A DNA stretch of 43,324 nucleotides from an uncultured Rhodobacterales bacterium (GTDB lineage Bacteria > Pseudomonadota > Alphaproteobacteria > Rhodobacterales > Rhodobacteraceae): NCBI GenBank assembly GCA_964473055.1, contig CAYYOE010000001.1, positions 1-43,324 of the forward strand, in the 5' to 3' direction. Under the pieces are notes generated by a model. The model searched no databases. It had not been told where the DNA came from and saw only the letters and a program-made list of their open reading frames with translations. The translations under genes and the position numbers were made by a program. Within the stretch, counting starts at the first letter, position 1. The number at the start of each line of letters is the position of its first letter. Below, in pieces: positions 35,959-41,834 of this stretch.

Positions 35959-37023
35959 TCAGCCGGGGCGCAGGCTTGCGGCGATAAGTGCTGCGCGTGT
36001 GGGCTGGCCGGTCTTCGACAGGATCGCTGAAACCTGATTGCGGACGGTCTTTTCGCTCTTGCCGATCTGCCTGGCAATCGACCGGTTGTCCTGCCCCAGC
36101 AGCAGCAGCGCCAGCACCTTCCGCTCGGCGGGGGTCAGGTCGTCGAACCCCTCGTGCACAGGCGTGGCTGCGGCATGGGAGTCGTCCGCCAGAAAGTGGC
36201 CAAGTTCATTCAGGAAGATCGGCCACGCGGGTTCCGAGGCCAGAAGCGCGTGATTGGCGCTGTCCAGCGGCAGGAAGCGCGCGCCGGGGATCAGAGCGGC
36301 CAAGAGCCGCCCCTCGTCGAAGGGCACACGGGCATCGCCGCGGGCGTGCATCACCAGCACCGGCAGATCGAGGCCGCGAGCCAGTTCCGTCACGTCGATC
36401 CGGTAGAGCGCGGACAGGATCGCCGCGGCGGTCTCGGGGCTGGCGGTGCGGCGTTCGAGATCGGTCCACCAGCGGTGCTGCTCGGGCGTGCCGCCGGGGA
36501 TGAACTGGTTGGTAAAGACCTGCCGGAAGGCCGGGTTGTCACGGCCCCAGCCCAGCCGGACCAGCGCCAGCAAGGCCTCGGCCTCCTGCTGATGGCCCTG
36601 GCCGGCCGGACGCATCAATGCCCCCCTTGCATAGGCGCCGATCAACACCAGCCGCGAGACCCGCCCCGGGTGGCGATGCGCAAAGGCAATGGCGATTGCG
36701 CCGCCCTGCGACATGCCGACCAGGGGGAAGGGGTCCCGCAGGTCCCGTGTCACCGCTTCAAGATCGGCGACCATCGCGTCCAGCGAGAAATCCGTCGCGT
36801 CCCGGTCTGACAGGCCGCAACCGCGCAGGTCGTAGCGCAGGTAGCAACGGGCGCGCGACAGTGCAGCCAGCCAGGGCCGCCAGACCGGGCTTTCGGCGTC
36901 ATACTCGACATGGCTCAGCCAGTGCGCCGCCCGCACCAGCGTCGGCCCGCGCCCGACCGAGGCGGTGGCGATCCGCGTGCCGTCCGCCGACGTCACGAAA
37001 CCGATGCTCTGGCCAAGCGCCAC
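35959..37023 (-). CDS. Alpha/beta-hydrolase domain fused to a C-terminal LuxR/GerE-type HTH (one-component regulator)
   Basis: The hydrolase part has IGFVTSADGTRIATASVGRGPTLVRAAHWLSHVE, the nucleophile elbow GMSQGG, HARGDARVP and SANHALL. The C-terminus LTPAERKVLALLLLGQDNRSIARQIGKSEKTVRNQVSAILSKTG is a LuxR HTH. I infer a GTG start at 37023 with a GGAGAAGG Shine-Dalgarno 6 nt upstream. The longer ORF to 37263 would overlap nrsF. Confidence 0.85.
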   Translation of the reverse strand: MALGQSIGFVTSADGTRIATASVGRGPTLVRAAHWLSHVEYDAESPVWRPWLAALSRARCYLRYDLRGCGLSDRDATDFSLDAMVADLEAVTRDLRDPFPLVGMSQGGAIAIAFAHRHPGRVSRLVLIGAYARGALMRPAGQGHQQEAEALLALVRLGWGRDNPAFRQVFTNQFIPGGTPEQHRWWTDLERRTASPETAAAILSALYRIDVTELARGLDLPVLVMHARGDARVPFDEGRLLAALIPGARFLPLDSANHALLASEPAWPIFLNELGHFLADDSHAAATPVHEGFDDLTPAERKVLALLLLGQDNRSIARQIGKSEKTVRNQVSAILSKTGQPTRAALIAASLRPG

Positions 37024-37145
37024 CTGTCGCCTTCTCCACCCGAGAACCCTAAGGACAAGCCTGCACGATCCTACCCTGCAATCGCGAATGCAGCCATCGC
37101 CGCGCGGAGATTCCTGGAACCGGAGGGTGGCCTGGGCAAACCCGC

Positions 37146-37165
37146 CCATCCGGAGGACCGGATGG
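37146..37165 (-). terminator. Candidate terminator after nrsF (CCATCCGG-TCCT-CCGGATGG then GCGGGTTTGCC on the minus strand)
   Basis: An 8-bp perfect stem about 20 nt downstream of the nrsF stop. It has only a short T run, so it is weak. Confidence 0.35.
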
Positions 37166-37183
37166 TGTTTGACAGGCGGCGGA

Positions 37184-37825
37184 CTACCACCGCAACAGGC
37201 GCCCTCCGGCCAGCGCGCCGATCCCGGCGGCAAGAACGATGCCGGTGGAATACCAGACCGCATAGAACAGCGGTGTGTCTTCGGTGCAGTAGAGCGAATA
37301 GACCGCCGCCGCGATTCCGCCAGCTGCCAGGCCCGCCAGCGCCCCGCAGACCTGTGGGTTTACCGGGGCCCACTTGCGCAGCGCAGCCAGCAGCGCCGCT
37401 GTCATTGGCAGCGACAGGGCCACGATGGCCGGCAGGCAGTAGGACAGCGACTTGCCGACAAAGGCCATCTGGCGGCCCTTGTCGGGAGGAACAACCATCG
37501 CCCACAGGAACAGCAGGGCGGCGATGGCGGGCACGACCCACACGGCACGCGCGGCGATGCCGGGCCGTGCGGCGGGGCGGGCAGCCGTCAGCGCCAGCGG
37601 CAGCGCCAGAAGGCCAAGGCCCAGCGGCAATACCGTCTTGGCCAGGACAACGGGCTGCGCCATGGCAGACCACAGACTGGCTCGCGGGCCGAACACGACC
37701 GTGAACAGCAACAGCGTGACCGCCCCGCCCGCGGCCAGCGCAAGCCCGGTGTAGCGGAGATGTTCGCCTCCACGCACCGGCCCGGCCTCGGCCACCAGTC
37801 GGTCGATCAGATCGTCGGTCCTCAT
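37184..37825 (-). CDS. nrsF: NrsF-family (DUF1109) membrane anti-sigma factor, negative regulator of sigma-F
   Basis: MRTDDLIDRLVAEAGPV is the typical DUF1109 N-terminus. It is followed by six hydrophobic segments and the conserved C-terminal LYCTEDTPLFYAVWY motif (family pattern C.DD.P.F...WY). ATGA overlaps the sigma gene stop. Confidence 0.88.
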   Translation of the reverse strand: MRTDDLIDRLVAEAGPVRGGEHLRYTGLALAAGGAVTLLLFTVVFGPRASLWSAMAQPVVLAKTVLPLGLGLLALPLALTAARPAARPGIAARAVWVVPAIAALLFLWAMVVPPDKGRQMAFVGKSLSYCLPAIVALSLPMTAALLAALRKWAPVNPQVCGALAGLAAGGIAAAVYSLYCTEDTPLFYAVWYSTGIVLAAGIGALAGGRLLRW

Positions 37826-38373
37826 CCGCGTCTCCCGTCGGTCTGGCCCATCCGGGACCGCAGGCGGGCCAGCGCCCGGTGCAATGCCACCCGCACAGCC
37901 CCCTCGGTCATGCCCATCCGGGCGCCAACCTCGCCTGCGGTGTCGCCCTCAAGGGCAACCGCCCGCACGATTCCCGCCGACCGCGTATCAAGATCGCCCA
38001 GCAACCGGTCGATGTCGCGAGTGGCCGTCGCGTCTGCGTCCGGGTCAGAGGCGAGCACCTCGGACAGGTCGGCGATGTCCACGGTGGGCCGGCCCCGCCT
38101 GCGCCAGCCATCGACGGCCTTGTAGCGGGCAATGGCGTAGACCCAGGGCGTGACGGGTTCGCCGTCGCGCCAGGTATGTCGCTTTGCGTGAATCGCCATC
38201 AGCACGTCCTGCACCATGTCCTCGACTTCGGCTGTCGCCCCGGGGACGCCACGCGCGCCCACGATCCTTCGGATGACCGGCGACGCTTCACTCAGGAAAG
38301 CGGCATAGGCGGCGCGATCGCCACCGATTGCCCGGCGGAACAGGTCGGCCCAGCGCGTCTCGCGTTCGGTCAT
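37822..38373 (-). CDS. sigF: ECF-type RNA polymerase sigma factor (sigma-F group)
   Basis: Region 2 (VQDVLMAIHAKRHTWRDGEPVTPWVYAIARYKAVDGWRR) and region 4 (EVGARMGMTEGAVRVALHRALARLR) are both present. I prefer the start at MTERETRW (38373), because the predicted -10 element overlaps the upstream ATG at 38385. Confidence 0.9.
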   Translation of the reverse strand: MTERETRWADLFRRAIGGDRAAYAAFLSEASPVIRRIVGARGVPGATAEVEDMVQDVLMAIHAKRHTWRDGEPVTPWVYAIARYKAVDGWRRRGRPTVDIADLSEVLASDPDADATATRDIDRLLGDLDTRSAGIVRAVALEGDTAGEVGARMGMTEGAVRVALHRALARLRSRMGQTDGRRG

Positions 38374-38384
38374 ACGTGGTTCCA

Positions 38385-38410
38385 TTCGTTCCTCACGGTC
38401 GGAATGTTAC
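38385..38410 (-). promoter_or_regulatory. Candidate sigma-F-type promoter for sigF-nrsF: GTAACA-N16-CGAA
   Basis: The minus strand reads tGTAACA TTCCGACCGTGAGGAA CGAA tgg. This is the same -35/-10 words and the same 16-nt spacer as the site on the other strand 47 bp away. It matches the Caulobacter sigma-F consensus GTAACC-N16-CGAA as I recall it. Confidence 0.6.
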
Positions 38411-38456
38411 AGACTGGCGCGGTTTTCGCATTGGGCTTCACCCTTTCGTGACCCGG

Positions 38457-38482
38457 GTAACAAAGCGGACGCAGGCCGCGAA
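38457..38482 (+). promoter_or_regulatory. Candidate sigma-F-type promoter for the DUF2282-DUF692-DUF2063-DoxX operon: GTAACA-N16-CGAA
   Basis: The plus strand reads gGTAACA AAGCGGACGCAGGCCG CGAA ctg, about 69 nt upstream of the precursor gene ATG (38551). Confidence 0.6.
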
Positions 38483-38550
38483 CTGCTGAATGCGGGCTTC
38501 GACCGGATGCCCGTCCGATGACACACCGACCATGACAGAGGAAGACACCC

Positions 38551-38853
38551 ATGTCCCAGATGAAGTCCCTTGCGCTGATGGGCGCCGTTGCCGCCGCCTT
38601 CGCTACCCATGCCGCTGCCCCGGCCCAGGCCCAGGCCACCGAGAAGTGCTTTGGCGTGTCGCTTGCGGGCGAGAACGACTGCGCCGCCGGCCCCGGCACG
38701 ACCTGCGGCGGCACCTCGACGGTCGACTATCAGGGCAACGCCTGGACGCTGGTGCCGGCCGGCACCTGCACCACGATTGAACTGCCGGCCATGGCCGACG
38801 GCACGGCGCGGCAGGGCTCGCTGGAAGAGCTCGACCGCGACCTGCCGGCATAA
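38551..38853 (+). CDS. bufA: DUF2282-family secreted Cys-containing precursor peptide (BufA/GigA-like)
   Basis: [27 protein letters not shown] is a Sec signal peptide, then [48 protein letters not shown]. This is the EKC(Y/F)G...G.NDCA...C.G......W..VP.GTC pattern of DUF2282. A GAGGAAG Shine-Dalgarno is present. Confidence 0.88.
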
Positions 38854-38910
38854 GGCACGGTCCTGCGGGGCGGGCGGATGCGCCCGCCCCGACATCCACG
38901 GAGGTCTGCC

Positions 38911-39780
38911 ATGCGCGACACATCCCCCCCCACGGCCCTGCCTCGCCTGCCCGGCGTCGGCTACAAGGCCCGCCACTTCGAGGCCCTGATGGCCGATCCC
39001 GGCCCGGTGGCCTGGGTCGAGATCCATGCCGAGAACTACATGGGCGCGGGTGGCCGTCCGCTGGCGCAATTGCACGCCCTGGCCGAACGATTCCCGGTTT
39101 CGGTCCATGGCGTGGGCCTGTCCATCGGCGGCGAGGGGCGGCTCGACCCCGACCATCTGGCACGGCTGCGCCACCTCCTGGACTGGCTGCAACCGGCGAG
39201 CTTTTCCGAACACCTGGCCTGGTCCACCCACGACGGGGCCTTCCTGAACGATCTTCTGCCCCTGCCCTACACGGCGGACACGCTGGCGCGGGTCTGCACC
39301 CATATCGACGAGGTGCAGGACCGGTTGGGGCGGCGGATGCTGCTGGAGAACCCGTCATCCTATCTGGCCTTCTCGGAGAGCGAGATGGCCGAGACCGAGT
39401 TCCTGGATGCGGTCGTGCGGCGGACCGGCTGTGGCCTTCTGCTGGACGTCAACAACGTTTTCGTGTCCGCGACGAACCTGTCGGTCGATGCGCGCGCCTA
39501 CCTTGCCGACTTTCCGATGGCCGCCGTGGGCGAGGTGCATCTGGGCGGGCACGATGCGCAGGACGATGGCGAGGGCGCGCCCCTTCTGATCGACAACCAC
39601 GGCGCGCCGGTGGCCGACCCGGTCTGGACGCTCTACGCCGAGGCGATGGCGGCCGCGGGCCCCCTGCCCACGCTGATCGAATGGGACACCGATGTGCCCG
39701 ACTGGCCAGTGCTGCGGGAAGAGGCCGCACGGGCCGGGGCGATCCTGAGCGCGATCCCGGAGGCCGCGGCATGGGCGTGA
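38911..39780 (+). CDS. bufB: DUF692 family multinuclear non-haem iron oxidase (MNIO, MbnB-like; BufB/GigB-like)
   Basis: [36 protein letters not shown]...[14 protein letters not shown]...FSEHLAWS...LLENPSSY...[14 protein letters not shown]...GEVHLGGH...TLIEWD is the TIM-barrel DUF692 signature. The start was trimmed to 38911, with GGAGG 6 nt upstream. Confidence 0.92.
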
Positions 39781-40529
39781 CACAGGGCAGCTTTCGCGCC
39801 GGTCTGATGGACCCCGGGCGCCCGGTGCCCCCCGGCCTCGTGCGCCCGGGTGGCGCGGGCGCTGGGCGGCGGTTCGACGTCTACCGCAACAACGTGGCCG
39901 TCGGCCTGACCGAGGCGCTGGAGACAGGCTTTCCTGCCGTGCGCGGCCTTGTGGGCGAAGAGTTCTTCCGTGCCATGGCGGGTGTCTTCCTGCGCACCCA
40001 TCCACCGGAAACTCCGGTGCTGATGCTGTGGGGCGCGCGACTGCCGGATTTCCTGGCCGGGTTCGCGCCGGCGCAGGGGCTGCCCTATCTGCCAGATGTG
40101 GCGCGCCTGGAAGTGGCCCTGCGCGACAGCTACCACGCCGCCGATGCCGCCCCGGCGGATCCGGCGCGCCTTGCCGACCTGACGCCGGACGACCTGGCGC
40201 GGACGCGATTCCGGCTGGCACCATCGGTACGTCTGGTGCGGTCGCGTTGGCCGGTGCTGGATCTGTGGCGCGCGGGCCTGGGCGGAACTGCGTCGGCCAG
40301 TGACGCGGGCCAGAACGTCCTTGTGACGCGACCCGCCTATGACCCGGCACCTGAATCCCTGGCGCCGGGCGGCGGGCTGTTCCTTGCGCAGTTGATCGCG
40401 GGCGCAACGCTGGGCGTTGCCGCGGAAGCGGCCGCCAGGGCCGTGCCGGCATTCGACCCCGCCCCCATCTTGTCGCGCCTGCTGTCCAGCGGGGCGATCG
40501 TCGATATCGAGACAGGAGACCCCACATGA
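39771..40529 (+). CDS. bufC: DUF2063 family protein (MNIO partner, BufC/GigC-like)
   Basis: [46 protein letters not shown] is the typical DUF2063 N-terminal domain. Its start overlaps the DUF692 gene end by 10 nt. Confidence 0.88.
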
Positions 40530-41083
40530 TTGCCCTCATCCGGTTGCAGGAACGGCTTTTCGCGCCGCTCGACCGCCACGCCGTCGCGATCCTGCCCACC
40601 GCCGCGCGCCTTGCCTTTGCGGCGGTGCTGTTCGTGTACTTCTGGGCCGCCGGCATGACGAAGGTCGGCACCGGTATCAGCGGGCTCTGGACACCGGCAC
40701 TTGGCGCCTATGCACAGATCTTTCCCCGCGCGCTGGAAGCGGCGGGCTACGACGTGTCGCAGCTTGGGTTGTGGCACCGGCTGGTCGTGCTGGCGGGCAC
40801 ATGGGCCGAGTTTATCCTGCCGGTCCTTCTGGTGCTGGGGCTGTTCACCCGGCTGGCGGCGCTGGGCATGATCGGCTTCATCGTGGTGATGAGCCTGACC
40901 GACATCGTGGGCCACGGGGTGGCGGGGGCGACCCTGGGCGCGTGGTTCGACCGTGATTCGGCCTCGCTGATCCTGGACCAGCGCACCTTGTGGGTCGTGC
41001 TGCTGGCCGTGCCGCTGGTGATGGGCGGCGGCCCCTTGTCGGTGGACCGGGTGCTGGATCGCGCGTCATCGCGTGCCGCCTGA
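40526..41083 (+). CDS. bufD: DoxX-family membrane protein (BufD/GigD-like)
   Basis: A 185-aa protein with four hydrophobic helices and a DoxX-like pattern (AEFILPVLLVLGLFTRLAALGMIGFIVV). ATGA overlaps the upstream stop. Confidence 0.85.
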   Translation: MIALIRLQERLFAPLDRHAVAILPTAARLAFAAVLFVYFWAAGMTKVGTGISGLWTPALGAYAQIFPRALEAAGYDVSQLGLWHRLVVLAGTWAEFILPVLLVLGLFTRLAALGMIGFIVVMSLTDIVGHGVAGATLGAWFDRDSASLILDQRTLWVVLLAVPLVMGGGPLSVDRVLDRASSRAA

Positions 41084-41285
41084 GGCGGCAGTTCCCGGCC
41101 GGACATGCCCTGTCATGCGAGTTTTACTTGCGATTCGGCCGCGATATGAGACGATTTCTCCACTGACAGCGACTTTCTGCCACGACCGCCTTCCCGCACC
41201 GGGGGGCAGCCGGACCTGAAAGATATCGGCTGCGACCTGACCCGCCGCAATCCCGCAGGCGGGACAACGTGAGGAGACTGGCGGA

Positions 41286-41492
41286 ATGCCGACAGGAACC
41301 GTGAAGTGGTTCAATTCCACCAAGGGTTATGGCTTCATCGCGCCCGACGGCGGCGGTCAGGATGTGTTCGTGCATATCTCGGCAGTCGAACGTGCGGGCC
41401 TGCGCGGACTGCAGGACAACCAGAAGATCGGGTATGACTTGCAGGCCGGTCGTGACGGTCGGGAATCGGCAAGCGATCTGAAACTGCTCTGA
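41286..41492 (+). CDS. Cold-shock protein (CspA family)
   Basis: MPTGTVKWFNSTKGYGFIAPDGGGQDVFVHISAV carries the RNP1 (KGYGFI) and RNP2 (VFVHI) motifs. A GAGGAG Shine-Dalgarno is present, and a long (about 200 nt) upstream non-coding region is typical of csp genes. Confidence 0.95.
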   Translation: MPTGTVKWFNSTKGYGFIAPDGGGQDVFVHISAVERAGLRGLQDNQKIGYDLQAGRDGRESASDLKLL

Positions 41493-41498
41493 CTCCGG

Positions 41499-41834
41499 CT
41501 AGCCCGCATCGGTCAGATCTGGGGGTTCGCCCCGCATCTCCCAGGCACTGCCCATCGCGACGATACAGCTTGTGCCGCTGGCATAGGTGACGATCATCGT
41601 CCAGTCACCCGTGGCAGGCTCTGTCCAGACCTCCAGCACGCTGTCGGCATCACGAATCCCGACGGCCGTGCGCTGGGCCCGGAACTGCATGGCCAGACGG
41701 TGTTCCAGGGCCGACCTTGGGGAACACAGCATCTCGGCAATCGGCGAGCGGGCTGAAGCCGGGGACGGCGCGCCCAGAACAAGCCCGGAAACAAGGAACA
41801 CCAAAGGCAGCCTTGCCATGACGCTGGCCGCCAT
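41499..41834 (-). CDS. Hypothetical exported protein
   Basis: MAASVMARLPLVFLVSGLVLGAPSPASA is a signal peptide. The mature part is about 83 aa and has two Cys. A GGAAGGG Shine-Dalgarno precedes ATG 41834. I recognise no family. Confidence 0.5.
   Translation of the reverse strand: MAASVMARLPLVFLVSGLVLGAPSPASARSPIAEMLCSPRSALEHRLAMQFRAQRTAVGIRDADSVLEVWTEPATGDWTMIVTYASGTSCIVAMGSAWEMRGEPPDLTDAG

Follow-up and report, generated by a model that had tools for sequence, protein, structure and literature searches.

A probable sigma-F/NrsF-regulated Buf1-type bufferin cluster in a Rhodobacterales bacterium

The locus and its gene products

We analysed a stretch of 43,324 nucleotides (nt), called the window below, from an uncultured Rhodobacterales bacterium of a stromatolite metagenome (GenBank assembly GCA_964473055.1, contig CAYYOE010000001.1, positions 1 to 43,324 of the forward strand). 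Six genes of this window, between positions 37184 and 41083, very probably form a sigma-F/NrsF-regulated Buf1-type bufferin (captophorin) cluster. The minus strand carries nrsF (37184..37825, 213 amino acids), which encodes a membrane anti-sigma factor of the DUF1109/NrsF type, and sigF (37822..38373, 183 amino acids, start at 38373), which encodes an extracytoplasmic function (ECF) sigma factor. Divergently, the plus strand carries bufA (38551..38853), coding for a DUF2282 protein of 100 amino acids that would be the Buf1-type bufferin precursor; bufB (38911..39780, 289 amino acids), coding for a multinuclear non-haem iron oxidase (MNIO); bufC (39771..40529, 252 amino acids), coding for a DUF2063 partner protein; and bufD (40526..41083, 185 amino acids), coding for a DoxX-family membrane protein. 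An earlier note, made from the sequence alone, had described six divergently arranged genes here, and all six open reading frames (ORFs) were found with the limits and strands it gave. According to the coordinates, the beginning of nrsF shares 4 nt with the stop of sigF (37822..37825) and the same is true of bufD and bufC (40526..40529). Since an ATG start lying over a stop codon can read nothing else, both overlaps are ATGA, as the note had claimed. bufC, too, begins before its neighbour ends, its ATG at 39771 opening a 10-nt overlap with the end of bufB.

The ORF listing also offered longer in-frame starts for sigF (38385), bufB (38878) and bufC (39681), to which the shorter ones used here are preferable. 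An ATG at 38385 would overlap the -10 box of the promoter of sigF itself, and in the orthologs the protein starts at the position corresponding to 38373 (MxDRNDRW...). A GGAGG sequence is found 7 nt 5' of the bufB start at 38911. The source contig carries a gene call of independent origin, which starts bufB at 38911 and bufC at 39771 and keeps the longer sigF (187 amino acids).

Profile searches, which the earlier note had suggested, bore out every family that it had assigned, with Pfam E values far beyond chance. The most specific assignment was that of BufB. In addition to a match to Pfam MbnB_TglH_ChrH (E = 9e-105), BufB scored 378.4 bits against the NCBIfam equivalog NF050167 MNIO_BufB ('MNIO family bufferin maturase'), whose trusted cut-off is 310 bits. 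All the sister equivalogs remained below their own cut-offs: HvfB (237.7 against 360 bits), ApyH (88 against 400), MbnB (TIGR04159; 58 against 325) and ChrH (32 against 600). When BufB was aligned with the solved MNIOs 3BWW, TglH and MbnB, ten of its residues (H66, H101, E146, D179, N182, H210, D228, H230, E257 and D259) fell on conserved positions, and these are invariant in 81 sequences. All of them except D259 are putative iron ligands. With HvfB standing outside this alignment, D228/H230 and N182 of BufB look equivalent to D242/H244 and N175 of HvfB. The latter are site-3 residues that are mutationally essential (10.64898/2026.07.17.739211).

The product of bufA, which the earlier note had described as a signal-peptide protein of 100 amino acids with four cysteines, matched Pfam DUF2282 (PF10048) with E = 1.5e-23 (83 bits, cut-off 22.4), and its cysteines lie at residues 33, 44, 52 and 73. 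The resulting spacing of 11/8/21 is identical to that of Caulobacter vibrioides BufA1 (Cys12/23/31/52), where the modification turns CysII and CysIII into 5-thiooxazoles and a disulfide links CysI with CysIV (PMC11626156). We compared the window with 80 Rhodobacterales loci fetched by BufB similarity, which are the closest relatives from one scan and not an unbiased sample; the spacing was the same in 77 of these 80. The four cysteines were invariant across 36 close homologs. Among 32 distant DUF2282 representatives Cys33 was again invariant, and Cys44, Cys52 and Cys73 were each at least 90% conserved. Two of the distant representatives (P0259 and P0260) keep CysI and CysIV and lack the two central, normally modified cysteines, which rules out that they are ordinary thiooxazole metallophores.

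Inspection of the BufA sequence revealed a basic n-region (K5), an Ala-rich hydrophobic stretch at residues 6-24 and AQA-QA motifs that are conserved in homologs. BufA thus probably carries a Sec-type signal peptide cleaved after AQA27 or AQA29. The hydrophobicity of the sequence indicated no transmembrane segment apart from this signal peptide, and no EGKCG repeats were present. Assuming cleavage after AQA27, the residues Thr9, Glu10, Cys12, Trp44 and Val47 named in nuclear magnetic resonance work on the Caulobacter protein (PMC11626156) match the same or similar residues of BufA at a constant offset of 6. The core peptide would then have about 6 fewer N-terminal and about 11 more C-terminal residues than that of Caulobacter. 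The features of the copper-binding loop, that is the cysteine spacing and the flanking small residues, are all kept in BufA.

More than 7,900 BufA homologs were scored, the top ones being 74-92% identical, and several bear the name 'BufA1 family periplasmic bufferin-type metallophore'; at 50% identity and E <= 0.001 there were 1,069 DUF2282 cluster representatives. The earlier note's remark that standard pipelines label all parts of such a system as DUF or hypothetical is outdated, because current databases name these parts: in addition to the NCBIfam BufB model and the BufA1 name used by NCBI and UniRef, the precomputed Pfam annotation of the source contig already uses the labels 'BufA1' and 'HvfC_N'. 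At its C terminus BufA has a conserved tail that is not part of the Pfam domain. We considered this tail as a novelty of the clade and rejected the idea, since an LP...GSL...RDxP pattern recurs in many of the 32 distant representatives. Judging from these sequences the tail belongs to the family as a whole, even though the Pfam model leaves it uncovered, and only an AMADGT-like insert is restricted to the present group and a small number of others. A search of PDB sequences with BufA gave no match. The AlphaFold model of BufA, built with the 36 close homologs, had a mean predicted local distance difference test (pLDDT) score of 53.8. The strands that it contained at residues 30-34 and 64-69 were no more than suggestive, and none of our conclusions draws on this model.

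The N-terminal part of BufC matched Pfam DUF2063 with E = 2.6e-24, and the protein remained under the cut-off of the NCBIfam model HvfC (3.4e-09, 36.9 against 142 bits). A profile search of the PDB returned only a marginal match (E = 0.02), to TglI, which is deposited as 'RiPP Recognition protein' (RiPP, ribosomally synthesised and post-translationally modified peptide); the same database searched with BufC as a single sequence gave no match. BufD has several hydrophobic segments and a weak match to Pfam DoxX (E = 2.4e-06, 28.5 bits against a cut-off of 23.6), and was likewise under the cut-off of NCBIfam HvfX (22.7 against 80 bits). The DoxX protein of Caulobacter is dispensable for modification and copper protection (PMC11626156). 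BufD appears to be accessory in the system.

As to the regulators, NrsF matched Pfam NrsF over the full length of the profile (E = 6.2e-52) and contains multiple hydrophobic segments. Its Cys130 and Cys180 were invariant in 9 of 9 orthologs, whereas Cys160 was not conserved. These two cysteines occupy the positions of the functional C131 and C181 of Caulobacter NrsF, whose substitution de-represses the regulon (PMC3511200). SigF matched both Sigma70_r2 (E = 9.8e-09) and Sigma70_r4 (E = 1.5e-08) of Pfam.

Sigma-F-type promoters and probable control among relatives

The sigma-F binding sequence is GTAACC-N16-CGAA (PMC3511200). We found GTAAC-N17-CGAA, a pattern of the same total length, twice in the 43-kb window, where 0.01 occurrences are expected. 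The two motifs, each reading GTAACA-N16-CGAA, stand back-to-back in the divergent intergenic region, one toward sigF-nrsF and immediately 5' of sigF (38385..38410, minus strand) and one toward bufABCD (38457..38482, plus strand), the latter beginning 94 nt 5' of the bufA ATG. When one mismatch was allowed, two extra sites appeared in the window, which is the level of chance (4 found against 3.1 expected). A scan of positions 36900..41600 for consensus sigma-70 promoters and intrinsic terminators revealed nothing relevant.

We then determined how these motifs are distributed among the 80 related loci. All 80 contained bufA and bufB, 79 contained bufC and 74 bufD; an adjacent sigF-nrsF pair was present in only 8. 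All 8 loci that have sigF-nrsF beside the cluster showed the sigma-F motif 5' of bufA, against 1 of 69 loci that lack the pair, and the whole 1.3 Mb of locus sequence of the relatives, searched on both strands, contained 21 matches. In 7 of the 8 sigF-bearing loci a second motif faced sigF, at the same offset of 47-48 nt from the bufA-facing motif as in the window. That the presence of the promoter tracks the presence of the regulator is strong evidence, at the level of sequence, of sigma-F control and autoregulation of both operons, and supports the sigma-F dependence proposed in the earlier note. The promoter at 38385..38410 would probably provide the autoregulation and give rise to a nearly leaderless sigF mRNA.

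The loci lacking sigF-nrsF had a different element at this place. Of 68 sigF-less loci, 42 had GTGA[N]TGG between -75 and -118 relative to bufA, whereas none of 9 sigF-bearing sequences had it; the background is 0.023 per 250 nt. The element, which is absent from the window, is often followed by a GTTGAC/GTTAAC-like sequence, and its occurrence suggests a different regulator in most Rhodobacterales. Taken together, these distributions suggest that the buf1 operon exists in Rhodobacterales in two mutually exclusive regulatory forms, a sigF-nrsF minority that includes the window and a GTGA[N]TGG majority. TGTAACA was also enriched 5' of bufA in the sigF-less loci; its interpretation as a relaxed sigma-F -35 element was mostly rejected, as it lies about 205-250 nt upstream, by terminator-like hairpins located where the preceding gene ends.

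As a separate observation, the bufA leader following the -10 box contains a segment near GCACGGACGCC...GGCGCC that is common to 8 of 8 sigF-bearing relatives (L009, L013, L016, L018, L019, L039, L043 and L057). The leader of the window differs (…GCGGGCTTCGACCGGATGCCCGT…) and could likewise form a small hairpin.

A second potential control element lies inside the buf operon. The spacer between bufA and bufB contains a GC-rich stem-loop (38866..38891, plus strand) with an 11-bp stem and a GAUG loop and with no T-run after it, and the folding energy of positions 38851..38913 is -37.2 kcal/mol (z = -3.47). Of 78 sequences compared, those of the window and 77 relatives, 75 had a hairpin of -12 kcal/mol or lower between bufA and bufB, although the spacer sequences themselves are unrelated. 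Compared with shuffled sequences the spacers had a median z of -3.0, and z was below -2 in 81% of them against 2.5% of the coding control. Since no T-run follows the stem-loop, we infer a transcript-stabilising or attenuating element favouring the precursor. It would probably raise the precursor transcript relative to the enzyme genes and may set the ratio of precursor to enzyme.

Likeness to known systems, proposed function and alternatives

Bufferins were characterised in 2024 (PMC11626156). A survey of 2025 lists DUF2282, MNIO, DUF2063, DoxX, Sigma70_r2/r4 and NrsF as recognised components of Buf1 biosynthetic gene clusters, the sigma/NrsF genes being found in Buf1 and not in Buf2 clusters (PMC12452194). 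In 2026 the products of DUF2063-partnered MNIOs were unified as 'captophorins', with 21,424 precursors charted (PMC13097082). The closest likeness of our locus is to buf1ABCD (CCNA_03363-03366) with sigF-nrsF of Caulobacter vibrioides, where the same six families occur and the biosynthetic cluster adjoins sigF-nrsF; the divergent arrangement of the two operons is also the same (PMC11626156; PMC3511200). The likeness extends to the order MNIO, DUF2063, DoxX, the four-Cys precursor with a Sec signal, the two NrsF cysteines and the 16-nt spacer of the sigma-F promoter. The window differs from Caulobacter in that it comes from Rhodobacterales and not Caulobacterales and, unlike Caulobacter, it shows no visible buf2 operon within its 43 kb. 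The gig operon of Cupriavidus metallidurans and Legionella pneumophila has the same core of DUF2282, DUF692, DUF2063 and DoxX (PMC11626156); the inducers reported for it, Au, Cu and Cd, are known for those organisms and not for the window.

Other MNIO systems are more distant. Oxazolin/HvfABC, fontiphorin and gonophorin likewise combine an MNIO with a DUF2063 partner (PME1) and frequently DoxX, and their products resemble bufferins in containing 5-thiooxazoles, binding copper and being exported by Sec (PMC13097082). Their precursors are built of EGKCG repeats, in contrast to the DUF2282 fold of BufA. The locus falls outside the oxazolin/Hvf group because the HvfB, HvfC and HvfX models all remained below their cut-offs and BufA lacks such repeats. 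Methanobactin synthesis by MbnABC uses a homologous MNIO fold and metal site and yields a Cys-derived copper-binding heterocycle; the partner is MbnC, of a family other than DUF2063 (10.64898/2026.07.17.739211). The locus also falls outside this group, as no protein of the cluster had a Pfam or NCBIfam match to methanobactin precursor or partner models. The two kinds of peptide differ in use as well, since methanobactins scavenge extracellular copper for uptake whereas bufferins are Sec-exported and buffer periplasmic copper (PMC11626156). With regard to regulation, Azospira suillum possesses a similar divergent SigF/NrsF pair and target operon, and the intergenic region between them contains a sigma-F-like promoter. 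There, reactive chlorine species act as the signal, and the cargo consists of a methionine-rich peptide and a methionine sulfoxide reductase (PMC4436054).

Every element of the bufferin/gig-type reading in the earlier note that could be examined in silico held, BufB in particular scoring above the bufferin-maturase cut-off, and what the note had stated of the gig operon, the sigma-F regulon, the conversion of Cys to 5-thiooxazole and periplasmic copper binding is borne out by PMC11626156. If the locus works as its relatives do, membrane-bound NrsF would hold SigF at the membrane in unstressed cells. Envelope stress, caused by a metal or an oxidant, would perturb NrsF by way of the two conserved cysteines that it exposes to the periplasm, thereby releasing SigF, which would then drive the back-to-back promoters of its own operon and of bufABCD. 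BufA would be made as a 100-amino-acid precursor. While it is still in the cytoplasm, BufB and BufC would oxidise its central Cys44 and Cys52 to 5-thiooxazoles; formation of the two thiooxazoles requires BufB1 and BufC1, which together suffice for it (PMC11626156). The peptide would be exported by Sec and lose its signal peptide to signal peptidase, and a Cys33-Cys73 disulfide would form in the periplasm. The resulting folded mini-protein of about 70 residues would chelate Cu(I)/Cu(II) through thiooxazole sulfurs and nitrogens and thereby buffer excess copper. Bufferin binds copper 1:1, and its dissociation constants are about 6e-15 M (Cu2+) and about 7e-20 M (Cu+) (PMC11626156). The steps of this scheme are taken from PMC11626156 and PMC3511200; what was seen here is the gene content, the residues and the promoter motifs.

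Several points weigh against this assignment. We infer the modification, the export, the bound metal and the inducer of this ortholog from orthology, and the correspondences with Caulobacter rely on residue numbers quoted in papers, not on sequence alignment. Neither regulator reached the narrow models: NrsF scored 112 bits against the NCBIfam NrsF equivalog (cut-off 300), and the best NCBIfam model for SigF, PRK12512, gave 186.7 bits (cut-off 198), so that both are to be read as family members and not as strict equivalogs. The -35 hexamers of the window have A instead of the published C at position 6 (GTAACA for GTAACC). The single-sequence AlphaFold model of BufC had a pLDDT of 34, which is unusable for assessing a C-terminal fold resembling a RiPP recognition element. 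The weakest link is the inducing signal, which is uncertain because SigF/NrsF of Azospira answers reactive chlorine species and controls other cargo (PMC4436054).

This last point leads to the question of whether the same genes could have another role, the cluster responding mainly to an oxidant (hypochlorite or reactive oxygen species) or to a non-copper metal (Cd, Cr, Au or Hg), and its peptide acting chiefly as a redox or thiol buffer or as a binder of another metal. In Azospira the activation by reactive chlorine species is specific and drives the divergent yedYZ-mrpX (PMC4436054); sigma-F of Caulobacter was first tied to chromium and cadmium (PMC3511200), and in Cupriavidus the operon is induced by gold (PMC11626156). 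Fusions of MerC with bufferin suggest roles with other metals, and DoxX homologs are tied to oxidative or sulfur stress (PMC12452194), which also favours such a role. We nevertheless regard it as unlikely, since bufA reporters of Caulobacter respond to Cu and show no response to Fe, Zn or Mn, Buf1 picks copper out of a metal mixture (PMC11626156), and the BufA of the window retains the copper-binding loop in every feature.

The chemistry of the product could also differ. BufB is homologous to MbnB, and for close relatives such as oxazolin/HvfB an oxazolone-thioamide was the first assignment (PMC11252979), so that methanobactin-like oxazolone/thioamide pairs might be made instead of 5-thiooxazoles. 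Given that BufB reached 378 bits with its own model and only 58 of the required 325 with the MbnB equivalog, and that later work reassigned the products of DUF2063-partnered MNIOs, oxazolin included, to 5-thiooxazole (PMC13097082), we find this very improbable; a preprint likewise treats the HvfB modification as thiooxazole (10.64898/2026.07.17.739211). We give hardly any credence to a cryptic or decayed cluster, or to BufA being an unmodified small Cys-containing envelope protein, even though an old Pfam description has DUF2282 as a predicted integral membrane protein and the DoxX match is weak. All ORFs of the cluster are intact, with high GC content at third codon positions in those scored, translational coupling and ribosome-binding sites. 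The catalytic residues of BufB are invariant and BufA has no membrane segment beyond its signal peptide. The 74-92% identity of BufA over many genomes indicates purifying selection.

Surrounding genes and significance

Among about 20 other annotated ORFs of the window, which do not include every gene, no match to a natural-product family was found. They have ordinary functions and comprise components of a TctA/TctC transporter, a two-component system, components of a peptide ATP-binding cassette transporter, a major facilitator superfamily transporter, a molybdopterin oxidoreductase, a GcvT-like protein and a cold-shock protein. About 200 nt 3' of bufD lies a CspA-family cold-shock gene (41286..41492, plus strand), and a csp gene follows bufD, at a variable distance, in 66 of the 80 loci. 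This proximity may reflect either functional linkage or plain synteny. Further on, a small ORF on the minus strand (41499..41834; longest form to 41975) codes for 111-158 amino acids with a hydrophobic signal-like segment, and has two cysteines in the shorter, called form and four in the longest. It had no Pfam or NCBIfam match and no sigma-F motif upstream; homologs with 32-58% identity occur in 14 of the 80 loci, including all 8 with sigF-nrsF. On the other side of the cluster, directly 3' of nrsF, an alpha/beta-hydrolase with a C-terminal LuxR/GerE helix-turn-helix is encoded (35959..37023, minus strand), and a gene of this kind is beside the cluster in 3 of the 80 loci. Its longest ORF, to 37263, would overlap nrsF by 80 nt; the public gene call is the shorter form of 354 amino acids.

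The locus is a complete and ordinary copy of a well-described copper-peptide system, another ortholog in a family of thousands. As the chemistry, biosynthesis, export and copper-buffering role of such peptides were established between 2024 and 2026, it has little significance beyond correct annotation. It has a modest value as a clean example, from a Rhodobacterales bacterium living in the sea or in mats, of the full architecture of regulators and cluster. The comparison with relatives provides unusually clear support, at the sequence level, for sigma-F control, because the presence of the promoter tracks that of the regulator; the same comparison indicates that most relatives must control the buf operon in another way. 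The conserved intercistronic hairpin is a testable candidate for a device that sets precursor-to-enzyme stoichiometry. We tentatively put forward, as a possibility that we ourselves consider doubtful, that the sigma-F cassette is a swappable module which retunes the timing of peptide production, in addition to the stem-loop between bufA and bufB setting the precursor:enzyme ratio. Neither the swappable cassette nor the hairpin-dependent ratio appears in the bufferin literature that we consulted for comparison. If true, a swappable cassette could tie production of the peptide to, for example, metal or oxidant stress in the stromatolite mat.

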